A stretch of DNA of 64,000 nt from the NCBI RefSeq assembly GCF_022045235.1, contig NW_027266264.1, positions 80,786,001 to 80,850,000 of the forward strand. Direction: 5' to 3'. Of the stretch, positions 3,356-55,689 are shown piece after piece. The notes under the pieces are model-generated. The model was not told the origin of the DNA and searched no databases. It saw only the letters and a list, made by a program, of their open reading frames with translations. Position numbers and translations under genes: made by a program. How positions within the stretch are numbered: position 1 is the stretch's first letter; every line of letters begins with the position of its first letter. Origin of the DNA: Haliotis cracherodii. Taxonomy: Eukaryota.

Positions 3356-6300
3356 ATGGCGTTAGATGGCAATGAGACTGATGACTTTATTGTGAGTAGT
3401 GTGGTACAGTGAAACCTCGTTAACACAGACACTCCGCCTTCCGACCGATTAATGTTTGGTAACACCTAAGGTTCGTCAGTCCGGAATAATGTTAATGCGG
3501 ACATGTACTTTTGAAACGGTAACCTAAGTGTCAAGGACGTTTCATTGTATTTATAAGGTGTTCTGGGGTCCTTCTGGATGAATGGTATGTACACTTAAAC
3601 TGTCATCTAGTACAAAGATGAGCTTCAATAGCTGAGACATTGTTCATTTTGCTTGGTTGTCTTTGTTGCTGTTTAGAGCCGCAGCAACCAACGAGTCTGA
3701 CTCTCCATCCCGTTAGTCGTCTCTTACGACAAGCATTGGTTGCTGAAGACCGATTCTATGAACCAAACTTTGATGTAAATCAAATCAGATTGGCAGAAAG
3801 GACAAAGAACGAACTATTATGTATATGGTATTTAGGAGTCAAGTAAATCTAGACTTGTCAAATCACTGTCGACTTGAGTTGTCGTTTTTACCGTATTCTC
3901 TGTGGGTCCAAGAGACAGACTATTTCCAGCAACTATGGCTTCAAAAAGCTGCCTACATTCAAAACAGATATGTTATCAACCAAAAACACATCAAGCCCAA
4001 TATCCCAGCTGCTTATATCTGTGTTTCTGTAAATATATATGTAATCTTAAAATACTTCTTAAACAATTGGCTATTAATTCGAAATACAGACTGAAATTAA
4101 ATTCTATCTAAAATACAAGTACGCAATATTTAGTGTCACTATGTCGCTACGAAACCGTGTCTGTGGTTATGCATAAGGCTTTTGTTTTTGAAAAGGCATT
4201 GGTCAAAATGATTGGATCCGTTTTTTATCTAAGGTTTCCAAAGACTTTCACGTAAATCTCCCCCATCCGGATCTGTCTTCAACTGAAAAAACGTTTGTTC
4301 TCACACAAAACCAGTTTATACAGATGCCACTATACATACATTTATGTCTTCCACCACAGAGGCATGTCTCGTTGAAGATCGTGTTTCTGAAGATCAGCAA
4401 CATCGACACCATCAAGGAGGAGTACTCGGCAGACATTTTCCTCTCAGCCAGATGGCGGGAACCTGCACTAGACAGAACCAACAAGGAGGTTAGTACACAG
4501 CAATCATCTTCCTCTTAGCCAGATGGAGGGAGCCTGCACGAGACAGCACCAACAAAAGGTTAGTCCTCGGCAGGCATCTTCCTCTCAGCCAGATGGAGGG
4601 AACCTGCACGAGACAGCACCAAAAAGGAGGTTAGTACTCGGCAGACATCTTCCCCTCAACCAGATGGAGGGAACCTGCACGAGACAGAACCAACAAAAGG
4701 TTAGTACTCGGCAGACATCCTTCTCTCAGCCAGATGGAGGGAACCTGCACGAGACAGCTACTAAAAGGAGGTTAAGTACTCGGCAGACATCTACCTCTCA
4801 GCCATTGAAAAATATGTTCCTCTATGTCGGGACATGGGGAGGTAATACATTGGAACAACCTGATCGTCATTTGTCAGCTCGTGCTCTGTCCGCGACCCTC
4901 ACTGGGACTAGATTGGAAGGAATACGTTTGTCATTGCCTTTCTATCAACAAATCAACGTGTTTACCCATTGATCAGCACTATATTGTACAGAGAAGGAGA
5001 AGTAGTATTGTGGAAGGGGGTATTAGACATAATTTCCATTGTTGGCAGACCAAGAAAATCAACTGGGAGTCGTACTTCGACCCCAAGCTCAACATCCAGA
5101 ACAACATCGGGGAGTTGAAGCAGACGACATGGCGGGAGTTGCAGACGGAGGCGGGAGGGGAGACGTATGTGATGGAGAGACGCCGCATCAAGGGCAAGTT
5201 CTTCGAGAAGCTGGAACTGCAGGACTTTCCCTTTGACATCCAAGTAGGTCTGAAAGAGTCCTGTGGATTTTTGTCAACCATGGAAAACACATGAACTTGC
5301 ATCTATACATATCAAAATAATACCCCATCTTAACATACAGAACAAAGACGCCAATTATTAACCATTCTCGGTTATGCACCGAAAAAGATTCCATTTGGCG
5401 TAAAGGCTAAATAACGGTGAACATTATATGACATCTCATCTTGTCTGTCTGTCAACAGTCCTCGTTCTCTCCACAGGATCTCTCCATCCTCATCACCAGC
5501 GAATCCCCGCCCACTGATGTGGAGCTTATGGAGTTCAACTCGTCCATCAGCCACGTCAACGTGGACAGCTTTGTTGATCAGCAGGAGTGGGGGTTGTACG
5601 ACTTCGTGGTGGGCGAGCAGCGTCTCACGCCCAATGAATACAGCAGCGTCAAGTACAAGCGTCCTGGCTTCATCTTCCGGTGCTGTGCAGTCAGGAGGGT
5701 CGGCTACTTCACGTGGAACATCATGTTGGTCATTGTAAGCATAGAGATAGTTCTCGACATCTATACACGATTACCCCAAAGACAAGGCTATTTCAAGCAC
5801 GTGAACACCACGTAACCCGATGCCCAGGGTAAACCCATGGAAGTCTACATGTCCGCCAAAACAATTATTTGGTTTCAATTATGGGTAACTGTACATGTTC
5901 TGAAATGACACGTGTGTTTCTCAGGGTGAGTCAGTAAAAGCAATTTAGCTTTTCTGTAGAACCATTACACCTATGCTTTCAACATTTTACTTTGGTCAGA
6001 GGACACCACGTCGAAATAGATTCTGTTATAAGTTTGTTGGAGATATAATCATTTAATCAGTCGGTCAGCTCATGTCAGTGGGTGCATCCTCATCAGCAGT
6101 GACGTGGACCCTAGGAGGATCTTTCATCAGTCGTTTTGGCAAGCAAGTTCCATTTTTCATGGCATCATTGTCATTAATATATGAACTACCGACATTGTTT
6201 TACATTACACGTGTCCCATTTCCAGGCTATGATAAGTTCTCTGTCATTTGCCGCCTTCTCCGTTGACCGCGAACTGCCCCAGAGGCGTCTTCAGCTGTCC

Positions 6301-11035: not shown

Positions 11036-11219
11036 ACTACTGTATTATGTAAATCCATGCTGAATCGCAGTTGCGAATATTATGTAGTTAAAGGAGTATG
11101 CCGAGCAGGACTGAATGGCGATGAGACATTCATTGCGACAGTACCGTCTCCATTTAAGATGTCCTTGGTATATGCCCATGTAGCTCCAAATATTATGAGT
11201 GTCGGGTTCCCAACAAAAC

Positions 11220-11465
11220 CCCGTGAAGATCCGGGTTAGAATTGGTCTTCAGCAGCCTATACTTGTCGTCAGAGGCGACTAACGGGATCGAGTGGTCAGG
11301 CTCGCTGACTTGGTTGATGCATGTCATCGTATCCTAATTGCATGGATCGATGCTCATGATATCAATCACTGGATTGTCTGGTCCAGATTCGATTATTTAC
11401 AGACTGCCGTCATACAGCTGGAATATTGTTGAGTGCGGCGTTAAACAACAAACAAAACGACAACA
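11220..11465 (+). mobile_element. Full-length SINE-like family A copy
   Basis: Head CCCGTGAAGATCC...GGCGACTAACGGG, conserved body, tail GCTGGAATATTG.TGAGTGCGGCGTTAAACAACAAAC. Confidence 0.9.
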
Positions 11466-11837
11466 AAAGCTAGCCGCGAATAGCTGATGGTACGTTAAGG
11501 AATCATCACTCATCAACATCGACACTGTCTTAATACTATGCAAGAAACAGTTTTGTGTTTTAGTGTATTATTATCGAGTTAACATACATTCGTTCAGTTT
11601 GTCCCAATATCAATGATTGTCTAAATCACCATGGTTACCGATTAATGAGTGTGATCTGCTGAACTGACATCCTCTCTTCAATAATATAGTATTGTGTATA
11701 TATATATATATATAAGGTTATCGATTCGTGTACCTACACAGGTAGTTGGGTTAACGCTACTAGATTCCGCAGTAAATGGGAGAAACACGCCTTAATTATG
11801 TAACCACGCTGCGCGATACATACACATTAGAGTCAGA

Positions 11838-12103
11838 CCCGTGAAGATCCGGGGTAGAAAAGGTCTTCAGCAACCGATGCTTGCCGTAAAAGGCAACTAT
11901 GCTTGTCGTAAGAGGCGACTAACGGGATCGGGTGGTCAGGCTCTCTGACTTGGTTGATGCATGTCATCGATTCCAAGCGCGTGCATGGATCGATGCTCAT
12001 GTTGTCAATCACTGGATTGTCTGGTCCAGAGTCGATTACTTACAGACCGCCGTCATATAGCTGGAATATTACTGAGCAGGGCGTTAAACAGCAAACAAAC
12101 AAA
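11838..12103 (+). mobile_element. Full-length SINE-like family A copy with duplicated 22-bp hairpin module
   Basis: Matches the 11220 copy; (AAAC)n tail. Confidence 0.9.
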
Positions 12104-19600: not shown

Positions 19601-22459
19601 ATAATCTAATATTCCTTGATGCACACGTATTCAGGCAAACCGGAACTACAACAAGAACCAGTTTCTGTTTTGGGCTGGGGAATATGGACTCGTCCGCTGT
19701 TTGGGGTACCAAGTGCGTTGGTGCATTCTAATTTTGGCTTGGGAACATTTTTGGATACAGAAACCTACCTGGGGTACATTTATGTAGTACCAGTGCTAAC
19801 TATGACCCATTCAGCCATAATGCAACCACCTATTGCTGAATTGGCAAACACGTAACAGTTGGTGCACACTCATCGAACTAGTAGTAAGCAATGAGTGTGT
19901 TGTGTTTGATGTTGTATTTGTGATTAATACTGTGGTTTCCGATACAGACTGACAAAAGAGAAGTCGATGTACGAGAAGGAGGTGGAGACGCAGGAAGCTC
20001 GGGTCAACAAGATGAAGGCCGAAGGGGTCGATGAGCATGATGTCAGGAAACAGGTGAAGTTGCATCCCAGGCCATTCTGAGGAATACGATGGCTTGCCCC
20101 TACCGGCAATGACAATTGAAAGATTTTCAACTCTGCCTGCCTCTCATCACTTTATTGTTCCCAAGTACCATGAGTACAAACGGATGAATAAATTTCCTTT
20201 TTATATATAATGACGGGGGGATATAGCCATCAGTATGTCTGTCCGTCTGTCTGTAATCATTGTTTGTCCGGAGCATATTTCCTAAACCGTACAAGCTAGC
20301 TTCACAAAACTGGGTACACTTACCAATCAGGCTCAGTAGTAGTGCCTTTTGCTATTTAGAGATTTTAAGAATTTTTTATTTTTGTCGTTACCATGGAAAT
20401 ATGATGAACTTAGGAAATTTGAGGGTACTCAGAGACCCTAGGAAGCTCCTTCATTGCTAACCGTGTCTCCAACTAAATATGTTTCACAGGCTTTGATACC
20501 CTGTTTGGTATTCACTGGTAAGAGTCCTGGGGTAGTAGTTAGTTTGCAGTGGGGGTGGAGTTGTTATCCCCTGCTATAAAGTGGAAGTGGGATATAGGAA
20601 TGGGTCATGTTTGTCCGTCATATTTCGTTTCCGGAGCAGAACTCAAACCCATGAGAGACATCTTAACCAGACTTGGCACATGGATAGCTCTAGTGGTGAA
20701 CTGGTGCCTTTTGATAGTTTGGGATTTTTTAAAAAAAAGTATTTTTCGAGTTTCCATGGCAACAACTTTGACTTAGACTGAAAATGTCAGTAGTGCTCAT
20801 TTCCGGTGCAGATCTTGATAACCATACAATATTTCTTGCCTTGCAGACAACCGGACATGTCATATTGGCGGGAGATATGAGTATTTCATGCTTGTTCTGT
20901 CATTAATTTATGGGGGGCGATCGCGTAGCCTAGTGGTTAAAGTGTTCGCTGTCATGCCGAAGACCCGGGTTCGATTCCCGACATGGGTACAATGTGTTAA
21001 GCCCATTTGTGGTGTCCCCCGCTGTGATGTTGCTGGAATATTGCTTAAAGCGGCGTAAAACCATACTCACTCATTTATTTATGTACATATAAATCATTAA
21101 GCATTGTCTGTCTATAAGTCTTTGATTCAATGTATCCTGTGTTAGAATGTCCCCAGCATCCTGTTCTGGTCAACTGAGGCAACCAAATGGTCATGCTCAG
21201 TGATTGGTTGATATTGTATCATTGTGCCCCATTGGCATGAATCATGGCTCGTAATATCAATCACTGGATTGCCTGTTCCAGGCATGATTATGCACAGACT
21301 GCTGTCCTATAGTTGGAACATTGCTGAGTGGGACGTTGAATAGCAAAACAACAATACCCTTACCTTTCCAAACTTGACTGGGGGCGGTCGGGTAGCCTAG
21401 TGGTTAAAGCGTTCGTTTGCCACGACGAAGACCCGGGTTCGATTTCCGCCATGGGTACAATGTGTGAAGCCCATTTCAGGTGTCCCCCCACCATGCTATT
21501 GCTGGAATATTGCTAACAGCAGCATAGCCACACTCGCTCACTGACTCACTCCAGACTTGACAGACATTGTGGGATGTGTGTGACGGTGATGGTTGTTACA
21601 GATGGAGGTGCTGCAGGAGTCACGCGTCATGATCCCGGACACCAAGAAGAGGCTGAGGACAGCGTACGATGAGCTGGAACAGACACTGGTACGTACATCT
21701 GTAACAATCAGTAGGAATACAGTAAACTCATTATCATGATTATGATTTATATATGGCTGGGAAAATGATGGGCCTGGTATCAGATCTAGAAATGTTGATC
21801 CATGGACCCTAGGGCTGGGATGATACACCAACTGTGCGATCTGATATGTATCACGATATTTGTTTCACAGATAATTTTGTGTGACTTGTTTGAGTTTCTG
21901 GATAATAACCGTTGTATATTTTTCATCAAAACTTGGCAGATATATCAAACAGATCCTGATGTTGTGCGTTTGGTTTTTGCAGATTTTTGGCATTTTTATT
22001 TTTCTTGATTTCCATGGAAACAATTTGGACTTGTCATCGTGCATGCATGTCATCGTATTCCAATTGTGTGGATCGATGCTCATGATGTCAATAACTGGAT
22101 TGTCTGGTCCAGATTTGATTATTTACACACCACCATCATACAGCTGGAATATTGCTGATTGCAGCGTTATAAACAAACAGAACACAAGGTAATGCTGAAA
22201 GATTCTGAACTAGGGCATAATGACACTTGATCTGAAATACTGTTGTCACAAGATTAGATTTGATTTTGTCAAAATAAGATCGGACACCATCTTGTATCCA
22301 GGCTGACAAAATAATAGGATTATTTGCAGATGATTATCATGTCAAACAATGAGTTTTGTATGTTTATCCTTACAGCAAAGAGAAAGTGATCTGTCAGAAG
22401 CAGAGGAATTCGGCCAAGCCAAGAAGATCCTGGAGGCAGCACAGACAGCTCTAGCATAG
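16684..22459 (+). CDS. TBCA: Tubulin-specific chaperone A, 109 aa; exons 16684-16736, 19948-20053, 21602-21688, 22376-22459
   Basis: MADPRIRQIKIKTGVVKRLTKEKSMYEKE...EVLQESRVMIPD...; the 53/106/87/84-nt exons join in frame; first donor is GC (gcgagt). Confidence 0.95.
17605..17771 (+). mobile_element. tRNA-derived SINE family B
   Basis: A-box TAGCCTAGTGG and B-box-like GG.AGATTCCC; (ACTC)n tail; imperfect TSD CATT(G/T)CTTTCCA. Confidence 0.85.
18253..18423 (+). mobile_element. 5'-truncated SINE-like family A copy
   Basis: Body and tail match the 11220 copy. Confidence 0.8.
20198..20897 (+). mobile_element. Two Helentron-associated (HINE/DINE-like) non-autonomous element pieces
   Basis: GGGGGATATAG followed by a (GTCY)n microsatellite, internal AAACT.GG.ACA/CCATGG.AAC units, and a GCGGGAGATAT...CTTGTT 3' end; a related unit lies at about 21845-22035. 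Confidence 0.55.
20913..21073 (+). mobile_element. tRNA-derived SINE family B
   Basis: TAGCCTAGTGG and GGTTCGATTCC boxes; matches the 17605 copy. Confidence 0.85.
21380..21550 (+). mobile_element. tRNA-derived SINE family B, about 50 bp upstream of TBCA exon 3
   Basis: Same consensus; flanking repeat TCCA(A/G)ACTTGAC. Confidence 0.85.
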
Positions 22460-24146: not shown

Positions 24147-24433
24147 TTTGTTTGTTTGTTGTTTAACACCGCACTAAGCAATATTCCAGCTATATGACAG
24201 CGGTCTGTAAATAATTGAGACTGGACTAGACAATGAAGTGATTTACATCATGAGCATCGGTCCATGCAATTTGGGTGCAATGACATGCATCTTCCAAGTC
24301 AGCGAGTCTGACCACTTGAACCTGTTAGTCGCCTCTTATGACAAGCATAGTCGCCTTTTATGGCAAGCATAGTCACCTTTTACAGCAAGCATGGGTTGTT
24401 GAAGACCTGTTCTCCCCCGTGTCTTCACAGGTC
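24147..24433 (-). mobile_element. SINE-like family A copy with three copies of the 22-bp hairpin module
   Basis: AGTCGCC...CAAGCAT repeated three times at about 24326-24392. Confidence 0.85.
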
Positions 24434-31608: not shown

Positions 31609-34600
31609 ATGCTGTCTCTGCTGGCCTACCCCCTCAGCGTCCTTCTGGTCCTTGTCTCCCGAACCGACACAAGCACGGGTACGTTGATTGGGGGTATAAC
31701 GGTTAATGTCTTGGCATTCGTGCGAGGCATTTTCTTGAATGGTGTTGATTCCTTTATGTATGGGCTTTTGTTTCTAGGGACAGACATACGAGTATCCATA
31801 CGGACGTGACGTTTTTAATCTACGAATGATACCTGCCTAATTGTCATGTTATAAATCAATGTATAGTCGATGCATTTCCATTTGTGCATATTTCACAAAC
31901 AATAATTAGCTATAAACGGCGAACAAGCATGGCTACTGGAAACGACATGGAGTAGTGGGGAAAATCATGGGTATTGGGGACGGTTAGCATGGGGAAGTGG
32001 GGACAAGCATGGGTATTGGGGACGGTTAGCATGGGGAAGTGGGGACAATCATGGGTATTGGGGACGGTTAGCATGGAGTAGTGGGGAAAATCATGGGTAT
32101 TGGGGACGGTTAGCATGGGGAAGTGGGGACAATCATGGATATTGGGGACTGTTAGCTTGGGGTACTGGGGACAATCATGGATATTGGGGACGGTTAGCAT
32201 GGGGAAGTGGGGACAATCATGGATATTGGGGACGGTTAGCATGGGGTACTGGGGACAATCATGGATATTGGGGACGGTTAGCATGGGGAAGTGGGGACAA
32301 TCATGGATATTGGGGACGGTTAGCATGGGGAAGTGGGGACAATCATGGATATTGGGGACGGTTAGCATGGGGTACTGGGGACAATCATGGATATTGGGTA
32401 CGGTTAGCATGAGGTACTGGGGACAAGCATGGGTATTGGGGACGGTTAGCATGGGGGACTGGGGACAATCATGGATATTGGGGACGGTTGGCATGGGGTA
32501 CTGGGGACAAGCATGAGTACTGGGGACGGTTAGCATGAGACATTGGGGACGACAAGCACTAGATACGGGGCATCTTATCCCGAATTAGTGGTATGTTTTA
32601 TTAAGACACATCGAAACAAGAACAGTGAGTGAAGTTTACTATGAGTTTGGGGGTCGATGGGCAGATCCATCAATGGTGTGACGCACTTTACTTTCTTCCT
32701 GTTTGCAACAATTGTTAGTTTAGGCTGAATTTTGAATTCTTGAATAATATCATCGGAATAGGGAAGTTTCAAATGTGCTGTAATACATACAGTAACAAGA
32801 TACTTGACCTGAATTCCGGTTATAAATTGTCACACGTTTACAAATGTAGGGTCTGGTTAACCGCAGTACAGGAAGTTTATAGACTTCTAATCAGGTTGAG
32901 CAGAGGAGAGATATATAATAATAGATGTAGACCTCACTTGCTTTTGTAGATTTCAGTTAAGATATAAAAAGGTTAGCCTCCTAATCACTCGTCTTTCTTG
33001 ACAGATAACATTCTAGAATACACAACTTACGATGACAACATGGTGATTATGTCAGTTGTTCTGTGCAGGTGGCATGGTGGACACACTACTTGGATCCTAC
33101 CAGAAGGAAGTCCATCCCCGAACTGAGGACAACCAGAGTGTGTACGTGACGCTGGATCTGGCGATCAGACAAGTTGTAGATCTGGTAAGCTGACGCCTTC
33201 TTGTGAATGCTTTATGAAGAAACATTATGAAAGTCGGAGCAATGTTTTGTAATGGATCAATGCTGTGCATAGTGTCATCGCAGGGTGGCATGGTGGCAGG
33301 ATAGCGGGATATTTGGCTTGCAGCCTTAGGGCGAAGTTGTGGTAGGGGGGTATTTTAGTGGGGTGGGAGGTCGGCGTGATGATGGGATGGCTGGGTGGCA
33401 GTGTAGTGGGGTGGGAGGTCGACATCATGATGGGGTGGCTGGGTGGCAGTGTAGTTGGGTGGGAGGGTGGCGTGATGATGGGGTGGCTGGGTGGCAATGT
33501 GATGGGGTGGGAGGTCAGCGTGATGATGGAATGGCTGGGTGGCAGTGTAGTGGGGTGGGAGGTCGGCGTTATGATGGGGTGGCTGGGTGGCAGAGTAGTG
33601 GGGTGGGAGGGTGGCGTGATGATGGGGTGGTAGGGGGCAGTGTAGTCGGGTGGGAGGGTGGCGTGGTGATGGGGTGGTAGGGGGGTATTGTAGTGGGGTG
33701 GGAGGGTGGCGTGATGATGGGGTGGTAGGGGGGTATTGTAGTGGGGTGGGAGGGTGGCGTGATGATGGGATGGCTGGGTGGCAGAGTAGTGGGATGGGAG
33801 GGTGGCAGTGTAGTGGGGTGGGAGGGTGGCAGAGTAGTGGGATGGGAGGTCGGCGTGATGATGGGGTGGTAGGGGGGTATTGTAGTGGGGTGGGAGGGTG
33901 GCGTGATGATGGGATGGCTGGGTGGCAGTGTAGTGGGGTGGGAGGGTGGCAGTGTAGTGGGGTGGGAGGGTGGTAGAGTAGTGGGGTGGGAGGTCGGCGT
34001 GATGATGGGGTGGTAGGGGGGTATTGTAGTGGGGTGGGAGGGTGGCGTGATGATGGGGTGGTAGGGGGGTATTGTAGTGGGGTGGGAAGTCGGCGTGATG
34101 ATGGGGTGGCTGGGTGGCAGAGTAGTGGGGTGGGAGGGTGGCGTGATGATGGGATGGGAGGGGGCAGTGTAGTGGGGTGGGAGGTCGGCGTGATGATGGG
34201 GTGGCTGGGTGGCAGTGTAGTGGGGTGGGAGGGTGGCGTGTTGATGGGATGGCTGGGTGGCAGTGTAGTGGGGAGGGAGGTCGGCGTGATGATGGGGTGG
34301 CTGGGCGGCAGTGTAGTCGGGTGGGAGGGTGGCGTGGTGATGGGGTGGTAGGGGGTATTGTAGTGGGGTGGGAGGTCGGCGTGATGATAGGGTGGCTGGG
34401 TGGCAGTGTAGTGGGGTGGGAGGGTGACGTGATGATGGGATGGCTGGGTGGCAGAGTATTGGGGTGGGAGGGTGGCAGTGTAGAGGGGTGGGAGGGTGGC
34501 AGAGTAGTGGGGTGGGAGGTCGGCGTGATGATGGGGTGGTAGGGGGGTATTGTAGTGGGGTGGGAGGGTGGCGTGATGATGGGGTGGTAGTGGGGTATTG

Positions 34601-37600
34601 TAGTGGGGTGGAAGGGTGGCGTGATGATGGGATGGCTGGGTGGCAGTGTAGTGGGATGGGAGGGTGGCAGTGTAGTGGGGTGGGAGGTCGGCGTGATGAT
34701 GGGGTGGTAGGGGGGTATTGTAGTGGGATGGGAGGGTGGCGTGATGATGGGGTGGTAGGGGGGTATTGTAGTGGGGTGGGAGGGTGGCGTGATGATGGGA
34801 TGGCTGGGTGGCAGAGTAGTGGGATGGGAGGGTGGCAGTGTAGTGGGGTGGGAGGGTGGCAGAGTAGTGGGATGGGAGGTCGGCGTGATGATGGGGTGGT
34901 AGGGGGGTATTGTAGTGGGGTGGGAGGGTGGCGTGATGATGGGGTGGTAGGGGGGTATTGTAGTGGGGTGGGAGGGTGGCGTGATGATGGGATGGGAGGG
35001 GGCAGTGTAGTGGGGTGGGAGGGTGGCAGTGTAGTGGGGTGGGAGGGTGGCAGAGTAGTGGGGTGGGAGGTCGGCAGTGTAGTGGGGTGGTAGGGGGGAT
35101 TGTAGTGGGGTGGGAGGGTTGCGTGATGATGGGGTGGTAGGGGGGTATTGTAGTGGGGTGGGAGGGTGGCGTGATGATGGGATGGCTGGGTGGCAGAGTA
35201 GTGGGGTGGGAGGTCGGCGTGATGATGGGGTGGTAGGGGGGATTGTAGTGGGGTGGGAGGGTGGCGTGATGATGGGGTGGTAGGGGGGTATTGTAGTGGG
35301 GTGGGAGGGTGGCGTGATGATGGGATGGCTGGGTGGCAGTGTAGTGGGGTGGGAGGTCGGCGTGATGATGGGTTGGTAGGGGGGCAGTGTAGTGGGGTGG
35401 TAGGGTGGCAGTGTAGTGGGGTGGGAGGGTGGCAGTGTAGTGGGGTGGTAGGGTGGCAGTGTAGTGGGGTGGTATGGATGGGTGGCAGTGTAGTGGGGTG
35501 GGAGGGTGGCAGTGTAGTGGGGTGGTAGGGGGGCAGTGTAGTGTGATGGGATGGATGGGTGGCAGTGTAGTGGGGTGGGAGGGGGGCAGTGTAGTGGGGT
35601 GGTAGGGTGGCAGTGTAGTGGGGTGGGAGGGTGGCAGTGTAGTGGGATGGGAGGGTGGCGTGATGATGGGGTGGTAGGGTGGCAGTGTAGTGGGGTGGTA
35701 GGGTGGCAGTGTAGTGGGGTGGGAGGGTGGCAGTGTAGTGGGGTGGTAGGGTGGCAGTGTAGTGGGGTGGTATGGATGGGTGGCAGTGTAGTGGGGTGGT
35801 AGGGGGGCAGTGTAGTGGGGTGGGAGGGTGGCAGTGTAGTGGGGTGGTATGGATGGGTGGCAGTGTAGTGGGGTGGTAGGGGGGCAGTGTAGTGGGATGG
35901 ATGGGTGGCAGTGTAGTGGGGTGGGAGGGTGGCGTGGTGATGTGGTGGTATCGGGGCAGTGTAGTGGTGTGGGAGGGTGGCGTGGTGATGGGGCATCCTA
36001 GCGAGGGTAGTGGGTGGTTGAGTGGTGGGATGATGATGTTGGTTAATGGCAGAATGGAAGGGATGGTGGGTCGGATGGACAGCAGGGTGGTACAGGGGCG
36101 GGACAATGGGATGGCTTGGGGGCAGAGCAGTGATGGGTGTTCTTTCTTAATTGACCGGTTCCGACCCTTTTCAATACGTATGACGTTGTTTTACAATGAA
36201 CCTAGTGATGTGTCATCTTCTGACGACTCAACTTACTCCTTGTCTACATTTCTAGGCCGAGACAAAGCAGATTCTGACAACCAATCTGTGGATCCGCATG
36301 GTAAGATCTTTATTTTCACGAAAATACAAATATTAAATAAATAATATTGCCCGAGGTTTAACCGAAAAAAATTATCGTTCATCGAACATGTTGATATGGT
36401 TGGAAAAGGTCAGTTGTGTGTCGGAGCACATCGTTGGGGTCCTCCAAAAACACATGTCTTGTGGCAGGGAACTAAAAAGTAACATTCTAACAAGAATATG
36501 AAATGGTTACAATATGATTTATTCTGCAGAATTGGACCGACCACAGACTCACATGGAACCCATCAAGTTTCGATGGAATTGACACCATTTATGTACCTTT
36601 GGACAGTATCTGGACACCCGACGTCACCCTTTACGATGAGTAAGTGTATTGGCTGACTGTTATTAATTATTTAGCCATGAGGACATGAGTTGATCCTAGT
36701 AATTCACAGTAATCACAGGACCAATGCTTGTCGTCCCCTATAGTAGCCCATGCTTGTCGCCCCCTATAGTAGCCTTTGCTTGCCATCCCCTATAGTAGCC
36801 AATGCGTGTCGTCCCCTATAGTAGCCCATGCTTGTCGGCCCTATGGTAGTCCATGCTTGTCGCCCCCATAGTAGCCCATGCATATGGCCCCTTATAGTAG
36901 CCCATGCATATGGCCCCTTATAGTAGCCCATGCTTGTCATCCACTATAGTAGCCGATGCTTGTTGTCCCCCTATAGTAGCCTATGCGTGTTGTCCCCTAT
37001 AGTAACCTATGCTTGTCGCCCCCTATAGCACCCCATGCTTCTCACCCCTATGGTAGCCCATGCTTGTCGCCCCCTACAGTATCCCATGTCTGTCGCCCCC
37101 TATAGTAGCCTATGCTTGTCATCCCTATAGTAGCCCATGCTTGTCGCCCCCTATAGTAGCCCATGCTTGTCGTACCCTATAGTAGCCCATGCTTGTCGCT
37201 CCTATAGTATCCTATGCTTGTCCCCTATAGTAGCCCATGCTTGTCGTCCCCTATGGTATCCTTTGCTTGTCGTCCCCTATAGTAGCCCATGCTTGTCGTC
37301 CCCTATAGTAGCCCATGCTAGTCGTCCCCTGTAGTAGTCCATGATTCTCGCCCCCTATAGTAGCCCATGTTTGTCGTCCCCTATAGTAGCCCATGCTAGT
37401 CGTCCCCTATAGTAGACCATGTTTGTCGTCCCCTATAGTACCCCATGCTTGTCGTCCCCTGTAGTAGCCCATGCTTGTGGTCCCCTATAGTAGCCCATGC
37501 TTGTCACCCCCTATAATAGCCCATGCTTATCGTCCCCTATAGTAGCCCATTCTTGTCGCCGTCTATAGTAGCCCATGCTTGTCGCCCCCTATAGAAGCCC

Positions 37601-39801
37601 ATGCTTGTCGTTCCCTATAGTAGCCCATGCTTGTCGCCCCATATTAGCCCATGCTTGTCGTCCCCTATAGTAGCCCATGCTTGTGGTCCCCTATAGTAGC
37701 CCATGCTTGTCGTCCCCAGTTCCTAGCAGACACTAGGTACTGTTGCGCCTTATGAAGACATTCACTCAGTGATGAGCTAAGGAACAGATTGCACAAGTCT
37801 GTATTCTATTTGTAGCACAGCATTTGGCAGTAACGTCGCTCTGTCGGAAAGGAAGTTCCACAAACTAAAAGTAACCAATGAAGGCAGAGTAACGCAGAGA
37901 TTCCCCACCGTCCTCAGCAGCATCTGCGGTGTCGACACCACCTACTTCCCCTTTGACAAACAGCGATGTCCACTCAAGTTTGGCTTGTGGCTTCACGATG
38001 ACGACATGGTGACCTTGACAAGCGACCAGACAGGGGACACCACGTCGTATCTCGAGAATGCTGAATGGTTCCTCACCGGAATCGATGCAGAGAAGAAGCC
38101 ATATTTGTACAATGGTTTAGTCTACAGCACTATCACGTACAGTGTGTCCATACAAAGACGACCGGCGTTCTTCATGCTGACGTTGTTCTTCCCATGTTTT
38201 CTCCTCAGTAGTATGTCCATCCTCGGGTTCTTCCTCCCGCCAACTTCAGGGGAGAAGGTCGCGCTGCAGGTCACCCTGCTGCTGTCCCTGACAGTGTTCC
38301 TGTTCCTCACCATAGATACGCTGCCACCAAACTCCGAACCATTGCCACTTATGTGTAAGTACAGAAATAGTGACTGGACATGTCACTTGAAGATCCACCA
38401 CTAGACCACTAGCATTCGTCAACACTCGCCCCTTTCTGTAACCTGCAAAAAGACTCGTCCCCCTATCGATGATTGTCATGTGCGAAAATACGACAAAATC
38501 AAAAATCCGCATTTGACTTCAAGTTCTTCGGTCAAAGAAACCCTCGGGAATAATTTTTGATTTTACATATGTCTTGCATCTAAAAATATACCAAAGATAC
38601 AGTTATATGTGTTCAATCATGCTGTATAATACCGCATGTCCCGATGTGCTTTAAATTGAATCCGAAATTATAATATTTTTGGGGATATATACGTGAATCA
38701 TTGCTCAACGAGTAGACAATTCTTTTAGCTATGCCCCTTTGCGCTTAGACGGAACCTGGTCGCTAAAATGGCCACGAGAGGGGCACGAGTCAGTATTCGG
38801 CTTGTCCCCGAATAACACGAGTTGGTCACGAATGGACCACTAAGTCGGTCAGGGCCCAAGAACCCATTGCTTGTCGTAATAGCCGACCAATGAGGAGTGC
38901 TTATGTGGCCTGGGTATTTGGCCGCTTACGATGCGGGTTTTTGTTTATGCTGTCAATCACTTGTTTGTCTGGACCAGACGATTACTTTCAGGTTGCAGTG
39001 ATAAAGTTGTAACAGCGTTGCCCCGGCGTAAAACAACACTTATGTTACAAATTATTCATATTAGCGGGTGGACTCTGGCATTTTATACACCTTAATGACA
39101 GGTATCGTGTATTTTATATTGCAGGCGTGTACTTCGTGTTGGTGATCATGCTTGCAACCACGTCTTGCGTCCTCGCTGTTATTGTTCAGAAAATTCACCT
39201 GAAAAGCAAACAAGGCTGGAAGGTTCCTCCTCTGGCACGAACTGTCATCATCCACTGGCTTGGTCGTCTGTTGCTGATGAAGAGGCCACACGTTCGCAGG
39301 AAACATACAGATGTACGAGAGTTCAACCAACAAGTCTACAATTTATTTATTTTTTATCCTTGGTATCAAAGTCAAAGCTACAGAACTGAAAATTATTAAT
39401 AGTTTGGCTTTAAAATGTATTGGATGTTTAGTTCCTTTGATCAAGATATGTTTTAAGTTTTAACCATTCCATGTTCTGAAGTTTGGGTGTTGTATATCCA
39501 GGAGGACCTTGAAGCAGAGAGAGGGGGCAACACCGTCGGTATTCAGAAAACTCCAACAGCAGAAACATCAGATGCACCAGCACCGTCAACATTACCTAGG
39601 GAGTATGGGGCTTTCCGGGAGATACTGACGGGCCTCGAGCAGCTGCTGAAACTCCATAAAGGGGAGGGGGCAACAGACGACACTGCCGAATATCAGGACT
39701 GGCTAACCATTGCATCTATCCTTGACAGATTCTTCCTGATTCTCTCTGTAGTCATTTCGGTTGTCTTATCAACCGTCTTCCTTATCCATTTTTCCGTTTG
39801 A
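31609..39801 (+). CDS. Nicotinic acetylcholine receptor-like subunit (non-alpha, cation-type), 455 aa; exons 31609-31678, 33069-33184, 36256-36300, 36530-36639, 37816-38354, 39125-39312, 39502-39801
   Basis: Signal peptide; typical 45- and 110-nt exons (QILTTNLW; W.D.RL.W...IWTPDV.LY); Cys-loop CGVDTTYFPFDKQRC; GEK before M2; W...A.ILDR before M4; phases join to 1368 nt. The donor at 39312 is the least certain. Confidence 0.9.
31925..32560. repeat. 42-bp minisatellite (dimer of about 21-bp halves) in nAChR intron 1
   Basis: GG(G/A)TATTGGGGACGGTTAGCATGGGG(AAG/TAC)TGGGGACAATCAT, about 14 copies. Confidence 0.95.
33340..35995. repeat. 2.65-kb modular G-rich repeat in nAChR intron 2
   Basis: Shuffled modules GTAGTGGGGTGGGAGGGTGGC / GTGATGATGGGGTGG / TAGGGGGGTATT / CTGGGTGGCAGT; very strong G skew. 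Confidence 0.95.
36721..37718. repeat. 26-bp minisatellite (CCCATGCTTGTCGTCCCCTATAGTAG) in nAChR intron 4
   Basis: Directly visible, about 38 copies. Confidence 0.95.
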
Positions 39802-42444: not shown

Positions 42445-42560
42445 CAACCAAGTCAACGAGACTGACCACACGATCCCATTAGTCGCCTCTTACAAGCATA
42501 GTCGCCTTTTACAGCAAGCATGGGTTGCTGAAGACCTATTCCACCTCGGGTCTCCACGGT
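42445..42560 (-). mobile_element. SINE-like family A, 5' part
   Basis: Reverse complement of the family A head. Confidence 0.8.
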
Positions 42561-43090
42561 CTTGTCCAAAGTGTTTGTGTTTTGGATCATGTTCAATTTG
42601 GTGTTGTTTTTACCACCAGGTTCTTTGAATTGGACAAAACAAGGTTTGAACCACCTTGGAGATGAATGTTGATCATCGTGTCTCATTTATTTCAGTTACA
42701 GGGCCGGGTTCCTGCTCAAAAGTAATATTGCCCTGATAACACTATTGTGCTTTAGTGCTGACTAGTACTTGACGACCATCTTGAATTTTTGTAGATTTAT
42801 CAATAGTCGAAAAAGTTCAGTAATTGTGAATATGTTGTTAGAAACATAATATGGCTCCATGCCTTTTTCATCAAAAGATTTAACCTCATCTAAAATAAGG
42901 AAGATTAATAATTGGTGGCCAGATTGGATTATGCGAATAAGACATATTTCCTAAACTGGGATTGCTTGAGACTTTTAGTATGTTATTCTTGGGACCTTGT
43001 GGAAATGCATTGTTATGAAATAAATTCTGTTGCAATTTGTTCCAAGTGAATCCTTATTTGGCCTGGACTGTATGGGGTCCATGACAATCT

Positions 43091-43283
43091 ACCAGTGAAG
43101 ATCCGGGGAAAGAATAGGTCTTCAGCAACCCATGCTTGCCGTAAAAGACGATAAGAGGCGACTAACGGGATCGGGTGGTCAGGCTCGCTGACTTGGTTGA
43201 TGCATGTCATCGTATCCCAAATGCGTGGACCGATGCTCAATCATTGAATTGTCTGGTCCAGACTCGATTACTTACAGACCGCC
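43091..43283 (+). mobile_element. SINE-like family A copy lacking the tail
   Basis: GTGAAGATCCGGGG..GAATAGGTCTTCAGCAACCCATGCTTG head and body. Confidence 0.85.

Positions 43284-49437: not shown

Positions 49438-55689
<6,252 letters not shown>

Follow-up and report, generated by a model that had tools for sequence, protein, structure and literature searches.

A conserved RNA module heads an abundant Haliotis SINE family and recurs in LINEs and in the 3′ UTRs of unrelated (+)RNA viruses

The head of an abundant SINE family in the genome of Haliotis cracherodii is a conserved RNA structure that probably functions at the RNA level. The same module lies in the 3′ UTRs of unrelated (+)RNA viruses, which lack a DNA stage and in which its occurrence is patchy. 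The data favor a fold that consists of a 5′ H-type pseudoknot followed by a second pseudoknot. As for its function, the module may block 5′-3′ exonucleases (Xrn1/Xrn2) in the manner of an xrRNA and thereby set the 5′ end of the element, a tentative reading to which we give somewhat less than an even chance. The copy under study lies in a window of 64,000 nucleotides, i.e., the whole stretch of DNA that was analyzed (contig NW_027266264.1 of assembly GCF_022045235.1, positions 80,786,001 to 80,850,000 of the forward strand). Its head, at window positions 11220–11286, had been described in a sequence-only reading as a four-way junction with a kissing loop.

The SINE family and its copies

The abundance of the repeat, noticed in the sequence-only reading, is real: 8,281 sites in the genome match a 30-nt head pattern exactly, compared to none in the control. 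In 664 kb of unselected DNA from the same genome 39 heads were found, from which approximately 70,000 heads genome-wide can be extrapolated. The 264 kb around the window contain 46 loci of the family, 24 of which start within its first 10 nt. Within the window itself, where at least six heads had been claimed, a covariance model that was built solely from 15 non-viral sequences finds seven at E<1e-7, plus two weaker ones (Table 1). The motif of the third hairpin (hairpin 3, P4 in Table 1) occurs 11 times in the window, compared to 0.57 times expected.

The repeat headed by 11220–11286 is approximately 240 nt long. The head is present as described, but it differs by eye from the proposed consensus at 6 of 67 positions, two of which sit in the supposed kissing loop. 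The family consists of two subfamilies, with two hairpin-3 units in 49 of 80 young copies and one unit in 24 of the 80, so that the layout with a single hairpin 3, on which the reading was based, represents the minority. Among the six near-complete heads of the window, only the one at 11220 has this plain layout (by eye). In the commoner, long subfamily the hairpin-3 unit is duplicated over 22 nt, and this duplication is seen at window positions 11838, 24431 (−), 42560 (−) and 174 (−). Tandem arrays of the head or of the hairpin-3 unit are found elsewhere in the genome, where five loci (L034, L035, L038, L208, and L276) are older or chimeric copies with tandem modules and differing S2 stems.

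The head is indeed not derived from a tRNA, as ARAGORN detects none, and the reported lack of clear Pol III boxes holds as well, neither an A box nor a B box being present in the majority of 25 young copies. The 3′ tail of the SINE is homologous to two other sequences, the 3′ end of an I-group LINE and the corresponding part of a tRNA-derived SINE. This homology is visible only in the alignment; a blastn search of the tail against the LINE copies returned nothing useful. The tRNA-derived SINE sharing this tail is located in the window at about 20914–21075 (+) and 49863–50010 (−). The window additionally contains tandem arrays at 33356–35981, 36724–37717, and 31946–32537, with periods of 24, 26, and 42. 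In the 24-mer array one strand is very rich in G (GC skew up to 0.85), and the opening letters of the 26-mer unit resemble the junction between hairpins 2 and 3 of the SINE.

Table 1. Features of the SINE copy under study, of its head and of related copies in the window.
Feature	Position	Strand	Basis
Whole SINE copy, short subfamily: head, body, I/Nimb-type tail, (AAAC)n end	11218–11460	+	By eye, TSD, alignment
S1 5′ strand CCCG, pairs with 11232–11235	11220–11223	+	Swap test; mostly invariant
One-nucleotide loop L1, U in 16/17 families	11224	+	17-family comparison
S2 5′ strand GAAGATC, pairs with 11244–11250	11225–11231	+	Both-side changes, swap test
S1 3′ strand CGGG; its G run was given to the kissing loop in the sequence-only reading	11232–11235	+	Alignment, swap test
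Loop L3, containing the conserved AGAAT(A/T) motif after a stretch of family-dependent length	11236–11243	+	Family comparison
S2 3′ strand GGTCTTC	11244–11250	+	Both-side changes, swap test
Hairpin P3, 4 bp, loop paired with the stretch after P4 as pseudoknot 2; degenerate at this locus	11251–11263	+	
Hairpin P4 GTCG/CGAC, 7-nt loop TAAGAGG in the family (TCAGAGG in this copy); near-invariant	11265–11279	+	
TAA linker, then the 3′ side of pseudoknot 2; 3 WC pairs here, 4–5 in 11/17 families	11280–11286	+	
3′ tail, homologous to the I-group LINE 3′ end and to the tRNA-derived SINE tail	11400–11460	+	Alignment
Neighboring copy, long subfamily, hairpin-3 unit duplicated (22 nt)	11836–12103	+	Covariance model, by eye
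Neighboring copy, internal deletion removing P4	10844–11035	+	Covariance model, by eye
Head of another copy	101–176	−	Covariance model, 49.7 bits
5′-truncated head	3702–3779	−	Covariance model, 32 bits
Head with three hairpin-3 units	24314–24433	−	Covariance model, by eye
Old, diverged relative	38825–38901	+	Covariance model, 18.8 bits
Head of another copy	42487–42562	−	Covariance model, 43.1 bits
Head of another copy	43090–43176	+	Covariance model, 46.4 bits

The fold of the head

To assess the helices, 17 natural copies were chosen by hand, one per family (13 animal-type and 4 viral), and each helix was compared with partners swapped between families; these swap counts ignore the relatedness of the compared families and are not probabilities. 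Besides, pairs were scored for change on both sides in a plain MAFFT alignment of the 15 non-viral rows. P4 and the AGAATA motif served as search anchors, which means that their invariance is partly due to selection.

Stem S2 is as good in none of 5000 swaps over the 17 families, and five of its seven pairs changed on both sides in the alignment. The same holds for P3 (0/5000 swaps), with changes on both sides in three of four pairs and 90% pairing. Pseudoknot 2, formed by loop 2 and a 3′ stretch, was equaled in a single one of the 5000 swaps and has at least four WC pairs in 11 of the 17 families. For S1, i.e., pseudoknot 1 between the 5′ strand and loop 1, 27 of 5000 swaps were as good and at least four WC pairs are present in 15/17 families. 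S1 is 85% paired in the 15 non-viral rows without any change on both sides, while both sides are changed in two viral copies; its support rests on few changes because S1 is nearly invariant. The pairs of P4 never vary in the MAFFT alignment, which therefore offers no covariation evidence for this hairpin. A thinned set of 11 families gave the same order of helices, and for the four viruses alone the number is too low to tell them apart. On its own, the single copy of the head did not fold better than shuffled sequences (z −1.1).

These results divide the four-way junction of the sequence-only reading. Its three hairpin stems stand, and covariation across families supports S2, P3, and the pairing of loop 2 with the 3′ stretch; the closing stem and the kissing loop do not covary and are no better than swapped partners. 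The closing stem CCCGT/ACGGG is 38.7% paired, reaches at least four WC pairs in 4/17 families, was matched by 1406 of 5000 swaps and shows no change on both sides. The kiss is found in 7/17 families, with 1823 of 5000 swaps as good and, again, no change on both sides. In the copy that was cited for it, loop 2 reads GCCTA and not ACCCA. It is highly improbable that the junction forms even as an alternative state in the SINE family. Both pairings can be drawn there with five WC pairs each, the closing stem appears in the minimum-energy fold (by a method without pseudoknots), and the kiss can formally be drawn in a number of G/C-rich families (78% paired over three pairs). Neither helix is conserved, however, and both need the same bases as S1.

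The fold that is favored instead is predicted to run from S1 (4–5 bp) over a one-base loop, S2 (7 bp) and an A-rich loop to P3, P4, and the second pseudoknot. A one-base loop across a 7-bp stem, combined with an A-rich loop, is classic H-type geometry, and loop L3 would, according to the prediction, occupy the minor groove of S1. The loop of P4 fits a T-loop pattern. Pseudoknot 2 is weak in the SINE, where it has three WC pairs and where the duplication separates its strands further in the long, commoner subfamily, and in two of the four viruses, where only two WC pairs are left.

Occurrence in RNA viruses and in other animal repeats

All five exact matches in IMG/VR (to a 19-mer and an 18-letter degenerate pattern) are contigs of four distinct (+)RNA-virus-like genomes. 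Two of these carriers have a tombus-type polymerase, one of them in combination with a nodavirus-type capsid. A further carrier, represented by two near-identical contigs, has a tetravirus-type capsid, and the fourth (L066) has a long ORF without a Pfam or PDB hit, the features of which match viral polymerase clusters. The viral modules are in coding sense; the last long ORF ends 6, 11, 11, 74, and 101 nt before them, and the end of the contig is 89–150 nt away, although some of the contigs may be incomplete. The covariance model, to which no viral sequence had contributed, scores the viral copies at 39–64 bits and chance pattern matches at 24 bits or less. One virus has a second copy of the module in tandem, with one end cut off. 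Relaxed viral patterns only added chance matches in DNA-phage genes, at 24 bits or less, and phage records contained no match to the module. Among 80 viral relatives of one carrier, 41 of which extend 1,300 nt or more beyond the polymerase, the carrier itself is the only one with the module. The sequence of its closest relative (L487) ends before the 3′ UTR.

In metagenomes, at least 121 stretches match the module pattern, and they belong to several unrelated animal repeat families. A pseudoknot-1 start is missing in 52 of the 122 metagenome matches listed, 19 of which form one group that keeps only the 3′ half. Members of the 3′-half group (L137, L176, L110, and similar loci) run from AGAATA onward, have a longer body and carry a pseudoknot-2 pair that is swapped on both sides.

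Prokaryote genomes gave five matches, three in assemblies of animal symbionts and two that are chance-like. One of the symbiont-assembly matches is followed by an ORF that is 38% identical to ORF1 of the LINE described below. On these grounds, the three (L365, L366, and L368) are read as probable retroelement DNA of the animal host. L368 comprises a LINE 5′ UTR and ORF1 and is related to the I-group LINE of the Haliotis genome.

The type of the LINE donor and a putative upstream ribozyme

The proposal that the head was borrowed from the 5′ UTR of a LINE is borne out by an I-group LINE in the Haliotis genome that carries this module too. An RTE-type donor had been suspected; the LINE found is of the I group, although one RTE family is also listed with the head in the published account of such SINEs (PMC4758252). 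A pattern that excludes the SINE has 255 matches genome-wide, and 27 of 30 fetched loci belong to a single LINE family. Full copies are approximately 6.1 kb long and encode ORF1 and a 1,233-aa ORF2 with endonuclease (APE), RT, and RNase H domains. The module begins 58 nt inside the LINE and several hundred bases before ORF1, directly after a sequence resembling HDV-like ribozymes. In these first 58 nt all helices of an HDV-like ribozyme are visible by eye, in a very short form with almost no P4, and the Rfam model RF02682 scores them at 27.5 bits (E 0.0056), short of the 44 bits set for gathering. TSDs abut the first G of the putative ribozyme in three of five copies examined. The ribozyme sequence upstream of the module is kept in 27 of 27 LINE copies, none of which starts at the module. 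The region lies at L259:441–498 (G000:C2:20917010 region) and also in L257–L266. Antisense small RNAs cover parts of the LINE 5′ UTR (L259:496–543 and 616–664) in one of three runs, with 53 reads.

These findings bear on two explanations for a structured 5′ end. According to the first, which we judge improbable, the head is an uncatalogued self-cleaving ribozyme that cuts approximately 2 nt before S1 and so frees the element from read-through transcripts. The sharp 5′ end of the SINE and the many invariant unpaired bases would suit such an activity, and the 3′ half of the module loosely resembles the P4-C-U-A-A-P2 stretch of HDV. Moreover, ribozymes are described as common at the 5′ ends of non-LTR elements (PMC6765202), and the head is reported at the very 5′ end of Nimb-17_LMi, I-3_DR, and RTE-9_CPB (PMC4758252). 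However, an active cut at the module would remove the separate HDV-like ribozyme that all 27 LINE copies retain upstream, and a linear virus would lose its 3′ end if its RNA were cleaved in the 3′ UTR. In addition, the head matches no Rfam ribozyme, and the supposed cleavage site varies in sequence from family to family. The sequence-only reading had offered either a ribozyme or a 5′-processing or protective RNA; the LINE copies and the viral position disfavor the former, whereas a 5′-processing or protective role is plausible.

The second explanation is the hypothesis published for the heads of LP ("LINE promoter") SINEs, namely an internal RNA polymerase II promoter that acts as DNA, with a folding that is incidental or secondary. 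It accounts for the position at the 5′ ends of LINEs and SINEs and for the lack of Pol III boxes, and a double role is conceivable, given that the 77-nt end of L1Tc is described as both promoter and ribozyme. Yet the stems show changes on both sides, RNA viruses have retained the module, and in the LINE it lies behind a putative ribozyme that implies transcription from further upstream. A DNA promoter alone is insufficient, because it explains neither the covariation nor the presence in RNA viruses, and we consider this hypothesis very doubtful.

The 5′ ends of the copies

Among 80 young SINE copies, 55 have a recognizable tail and 24 have an exact TSD of at least 9 nt (9–14 nt; 0.4 in the control). 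The TSD ends 2 nt before CCCGT in 16 of these 24 copies. The statement that full-length copies start exactly at the first base of the fold is true for one of the 24. Both bases before CCCGT vary, with GA in 10/16, and may represent junction noise. In an older, mixed set of 77 copies, 20 TSDs were found, seven at 2 nt, six at 4 nt and none at 0. As a control served the tRNA-derived SINE that shares the tail; its TSDs lie at 0 in 8/20 cases and leave 1–5 extra bases in 11/20, which indicates that some of the scatter is junction noise. For the copy under study, the start at 11218 was set 2 nt before CCCGT by the rule of the family, its own TSD being of low complexity and ambiguous.

Similar starts are found outside this family. 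In two unrelated repeat families from metagenomes (12 and 16 copies), the conserved part starts 2 nt ahead of CCCG, and scallop copies begin inside the same C run in a published alignment (PMC4758252, Figure S2). Mapped small-RNA reads (1–53 per run) are mostly antisense, show no sense pile at the 5′ end and are uninformative on its position. A sharp 5′ end is given equally by a promoter, by a ribozyme or by inheritance from one master copy.

Nuclease block or ribosome docking

Two readings fit the SINE, LINE, and virus settings, i.e., a block of nucleases and a role in translation or ribosome docking. Of these two, only the nuclease block explains why unrelated non-coding families begin 1–2 nt before S1.

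If the module blocks Xrn1/Xrn2, SINE copies would be transcribed by read-through from host promoters, and the RNA upstream of the head would be chewed away after decapping or cutting until the nuclease stalls about 2 nt before S1. The result would be a SINE RNA that needs no promoter of its own and yet has a defined 5′ end; the LINE protein would copy this RNA from the shared 3′ tail. In the LINE, the module would form a second shield for the uncapped RNA released by the ribozyme, and in the viruses the product of the block would be a short subgenomic RNA from the 3′ end. The strand around the 5′ end would be held in place by two loops, the invariant AGAAUA loop and that of P4. The tandem copy in one virus has a parallel in flaviviruses, which carry tandem xrRNA copies at the start of the 3′ UTR. 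Viral xrRNAs are described as trimming RNAs to defined 5′ ends, thus making Xrn1 a maturation enzyme; they are found in 3′ UTRs and in intergenic regions, and those of class 3 stop Xrn1 at the base of the first helix (PMC12397905).

Several points speak against a block. Four H-type pseudoknots from frameshift sites reportedly failed to stall Xrn1 (PMC10321173). The fold of the module belongs to none of the three xrRNA classes, and pseudoknot 2 is weak in the SINE and two viruses, as set out above. Ends with a 5′-OH, as left by ribozymes, resist Xrn1. If the LINE has such an end, the absence of copies that start at the module (0/27) is expected, and it does not support the block either.

A cap-independent translation or ribosome-docking element would serve uncapped translation in the LINE, act as a 3′ enhancer in the viruses and hold the SINE on ribosomes, where it can catch the LINE protein; Alu uses SRP9/14 for docking on ribosomes. 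The location of the module in the 5′ UTR of a LINE that is headed by a putative ribozyme, ahead of ORF1, and in viral 3′ UTRs, two of them in genomes with a tombus-type polymerase, agrees with such a role. The invariant loops would suit contact with a protein or with the ribosome, and some SINE bodies retain the 3′ half alone (the 19 metagenome matches listed that lack a pseudoknot-1 start). Ribozymes in viral UTRs have been tied to cap-independent translation as well (PMC13725137). This role leaves the common start of unrelated families before S1 unexplained, though, and 3′ enhancers are described as specific for plant viruses (PMC12397905); we regard it as unlikely.

The wider proposal based on the nuclease block is held more cautiously than the block itself. 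The module would then be a new class of nuclease-blocking RNAs, exchanged between animal retrotransposons and unrelated RNA viruses, and the SINE would have its 5′ end made by 5′-3′ decay of the host, reaching tens of thousands of copies without a promoter or ribozyme of its own. We consider this possible but tentative. To our knowledge, xrRNAs have so far been described from viruses. If the block is real, an xrRNA would be present in tens of thousands of copies in an animal genome, it would provide a third route to the 5′ end of a SINE, neither by Pol III nor by self-cleavage, and it would answer the question about the role of the LP head that was left open in 2016. Whatever the function, a fold of 70 nt with loops that hardly vary is common to LINEs, SINEs, and at least four unrelated RNA viruses, which implies a shared host factor or a mechanical trick, and repeated exchange of RNA modules between retroelements and RNA viruses.

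Comparison with known systems

The SINE family is very likely the published LP-SINE family (Matetovici et al., 2016; PMC4758252), as judged from the sequence features that the paper describes. It has a head of approximately 70 nt that is homologous to Nimb/I LINEs, no tRNA, 5S, or 7SL head and no Pol III boxes, TSDs, a LINE-type tail, and terminal short repeats. LP-SINEs are reported from Haliotis (Hdi_LP/Hmi_LP), Littorina, Ostrea, and Saccostrea, and Lsa_2, Sgl_LP, and the scallop MESC heads are among them; like the present family, they combine a LINE-derived head with a tail shared with tRNA SINEs and lack a tRNA part, and the consensus of Hmi_LP is 255 bp long (PMC4758252). The published head of 68–70 bp is common to the 5′ ends of Nimb-17_LMi, I-3_DR, and RTE-9_CPB and was proposed, as an untested idea, to be a promoter (PMC4758252). 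The "Nimb-17 homology" block of the scallop copies (Figure S2 of that paper) contains the hairpin-3 motif as well and, on inspection by eye, the pairings of S1, of S2, and of loop 2 with the 3′ stretch. The tail hexamer is given there as AATATA, compared to AATATT in the copies studied here. The word "pseudoknot" does not occur in the main text of PMC4758252, and neither a structure of the head nor a link to viruses was found in it. In the literature searched, to which most subscription journals did not belong, the LP name is used only in PMC4758252 and no paper with the exact motif strings was found. The sequence family is thus known, and its structure and its link to viruses were not found in print within that same body of literature.

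A conserved block of a LINE 5′ UTR that is reused by SINEs and sometimes duplicated has also been described, namely the RTE 5′-UTR domain of Ceph-SINEs and bipartite RTE elements (Kojima, 2018; PMC5786205). That domain differs in being described as located in the middle of the UTR. Four motif strings had no match in the text of the supplement of PMC5786205, in which alignments shown as pictures would be missed.

Rfam contains no family at the site of the head and none at E≤10 on five homologue loci, in agreement with the earlier suggestion that the head may be uncatalogued and the earlier claim that it does not match the HDV-like, hammerhead, or twister layouts, which were compared by eye. Hammerhead, twister, twister-sister, pistol, and hatchet ribozymes had no Rfam match at gathering at the site of the head or at E≤10 on these five loci, and twister, pistol, hammerhead, and HDV layouts were rejected by eye on both strands. 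The HDV-like ribozymes of R2, RTE, and L1Tc resemble the head in being a structured RNA at the 5′ terminus of a non-LTR element. They have a P3/L3/P1.1 core, which by eye the head lacks, and Rfam is negative here too.

Among the xrRNAs, classes 1 and 2 were rejected, since the module has no three-way junction and its covarying stems form an H-type pseudoknot followed by two hairpins. The shape of class 3, a 5′ stem-loop with an apical loop that pairs in the 3′ direction, is seen only in the second domain of the module; no Rfam match was found for any of these classes. Nevertheless, the viral xrRNAs are alike in that they are described as compact and pseudoknotted, occur in the 3′ UTRs of (+)RNA viruses and can place the 5′ end at the base of the first helix (PMC12397905). 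The module, a candidate nuclease block, is unlike them in that its 5′ strand is itself part of an H-type pseudoknot and in that it is also carried by the retroelements of the host.
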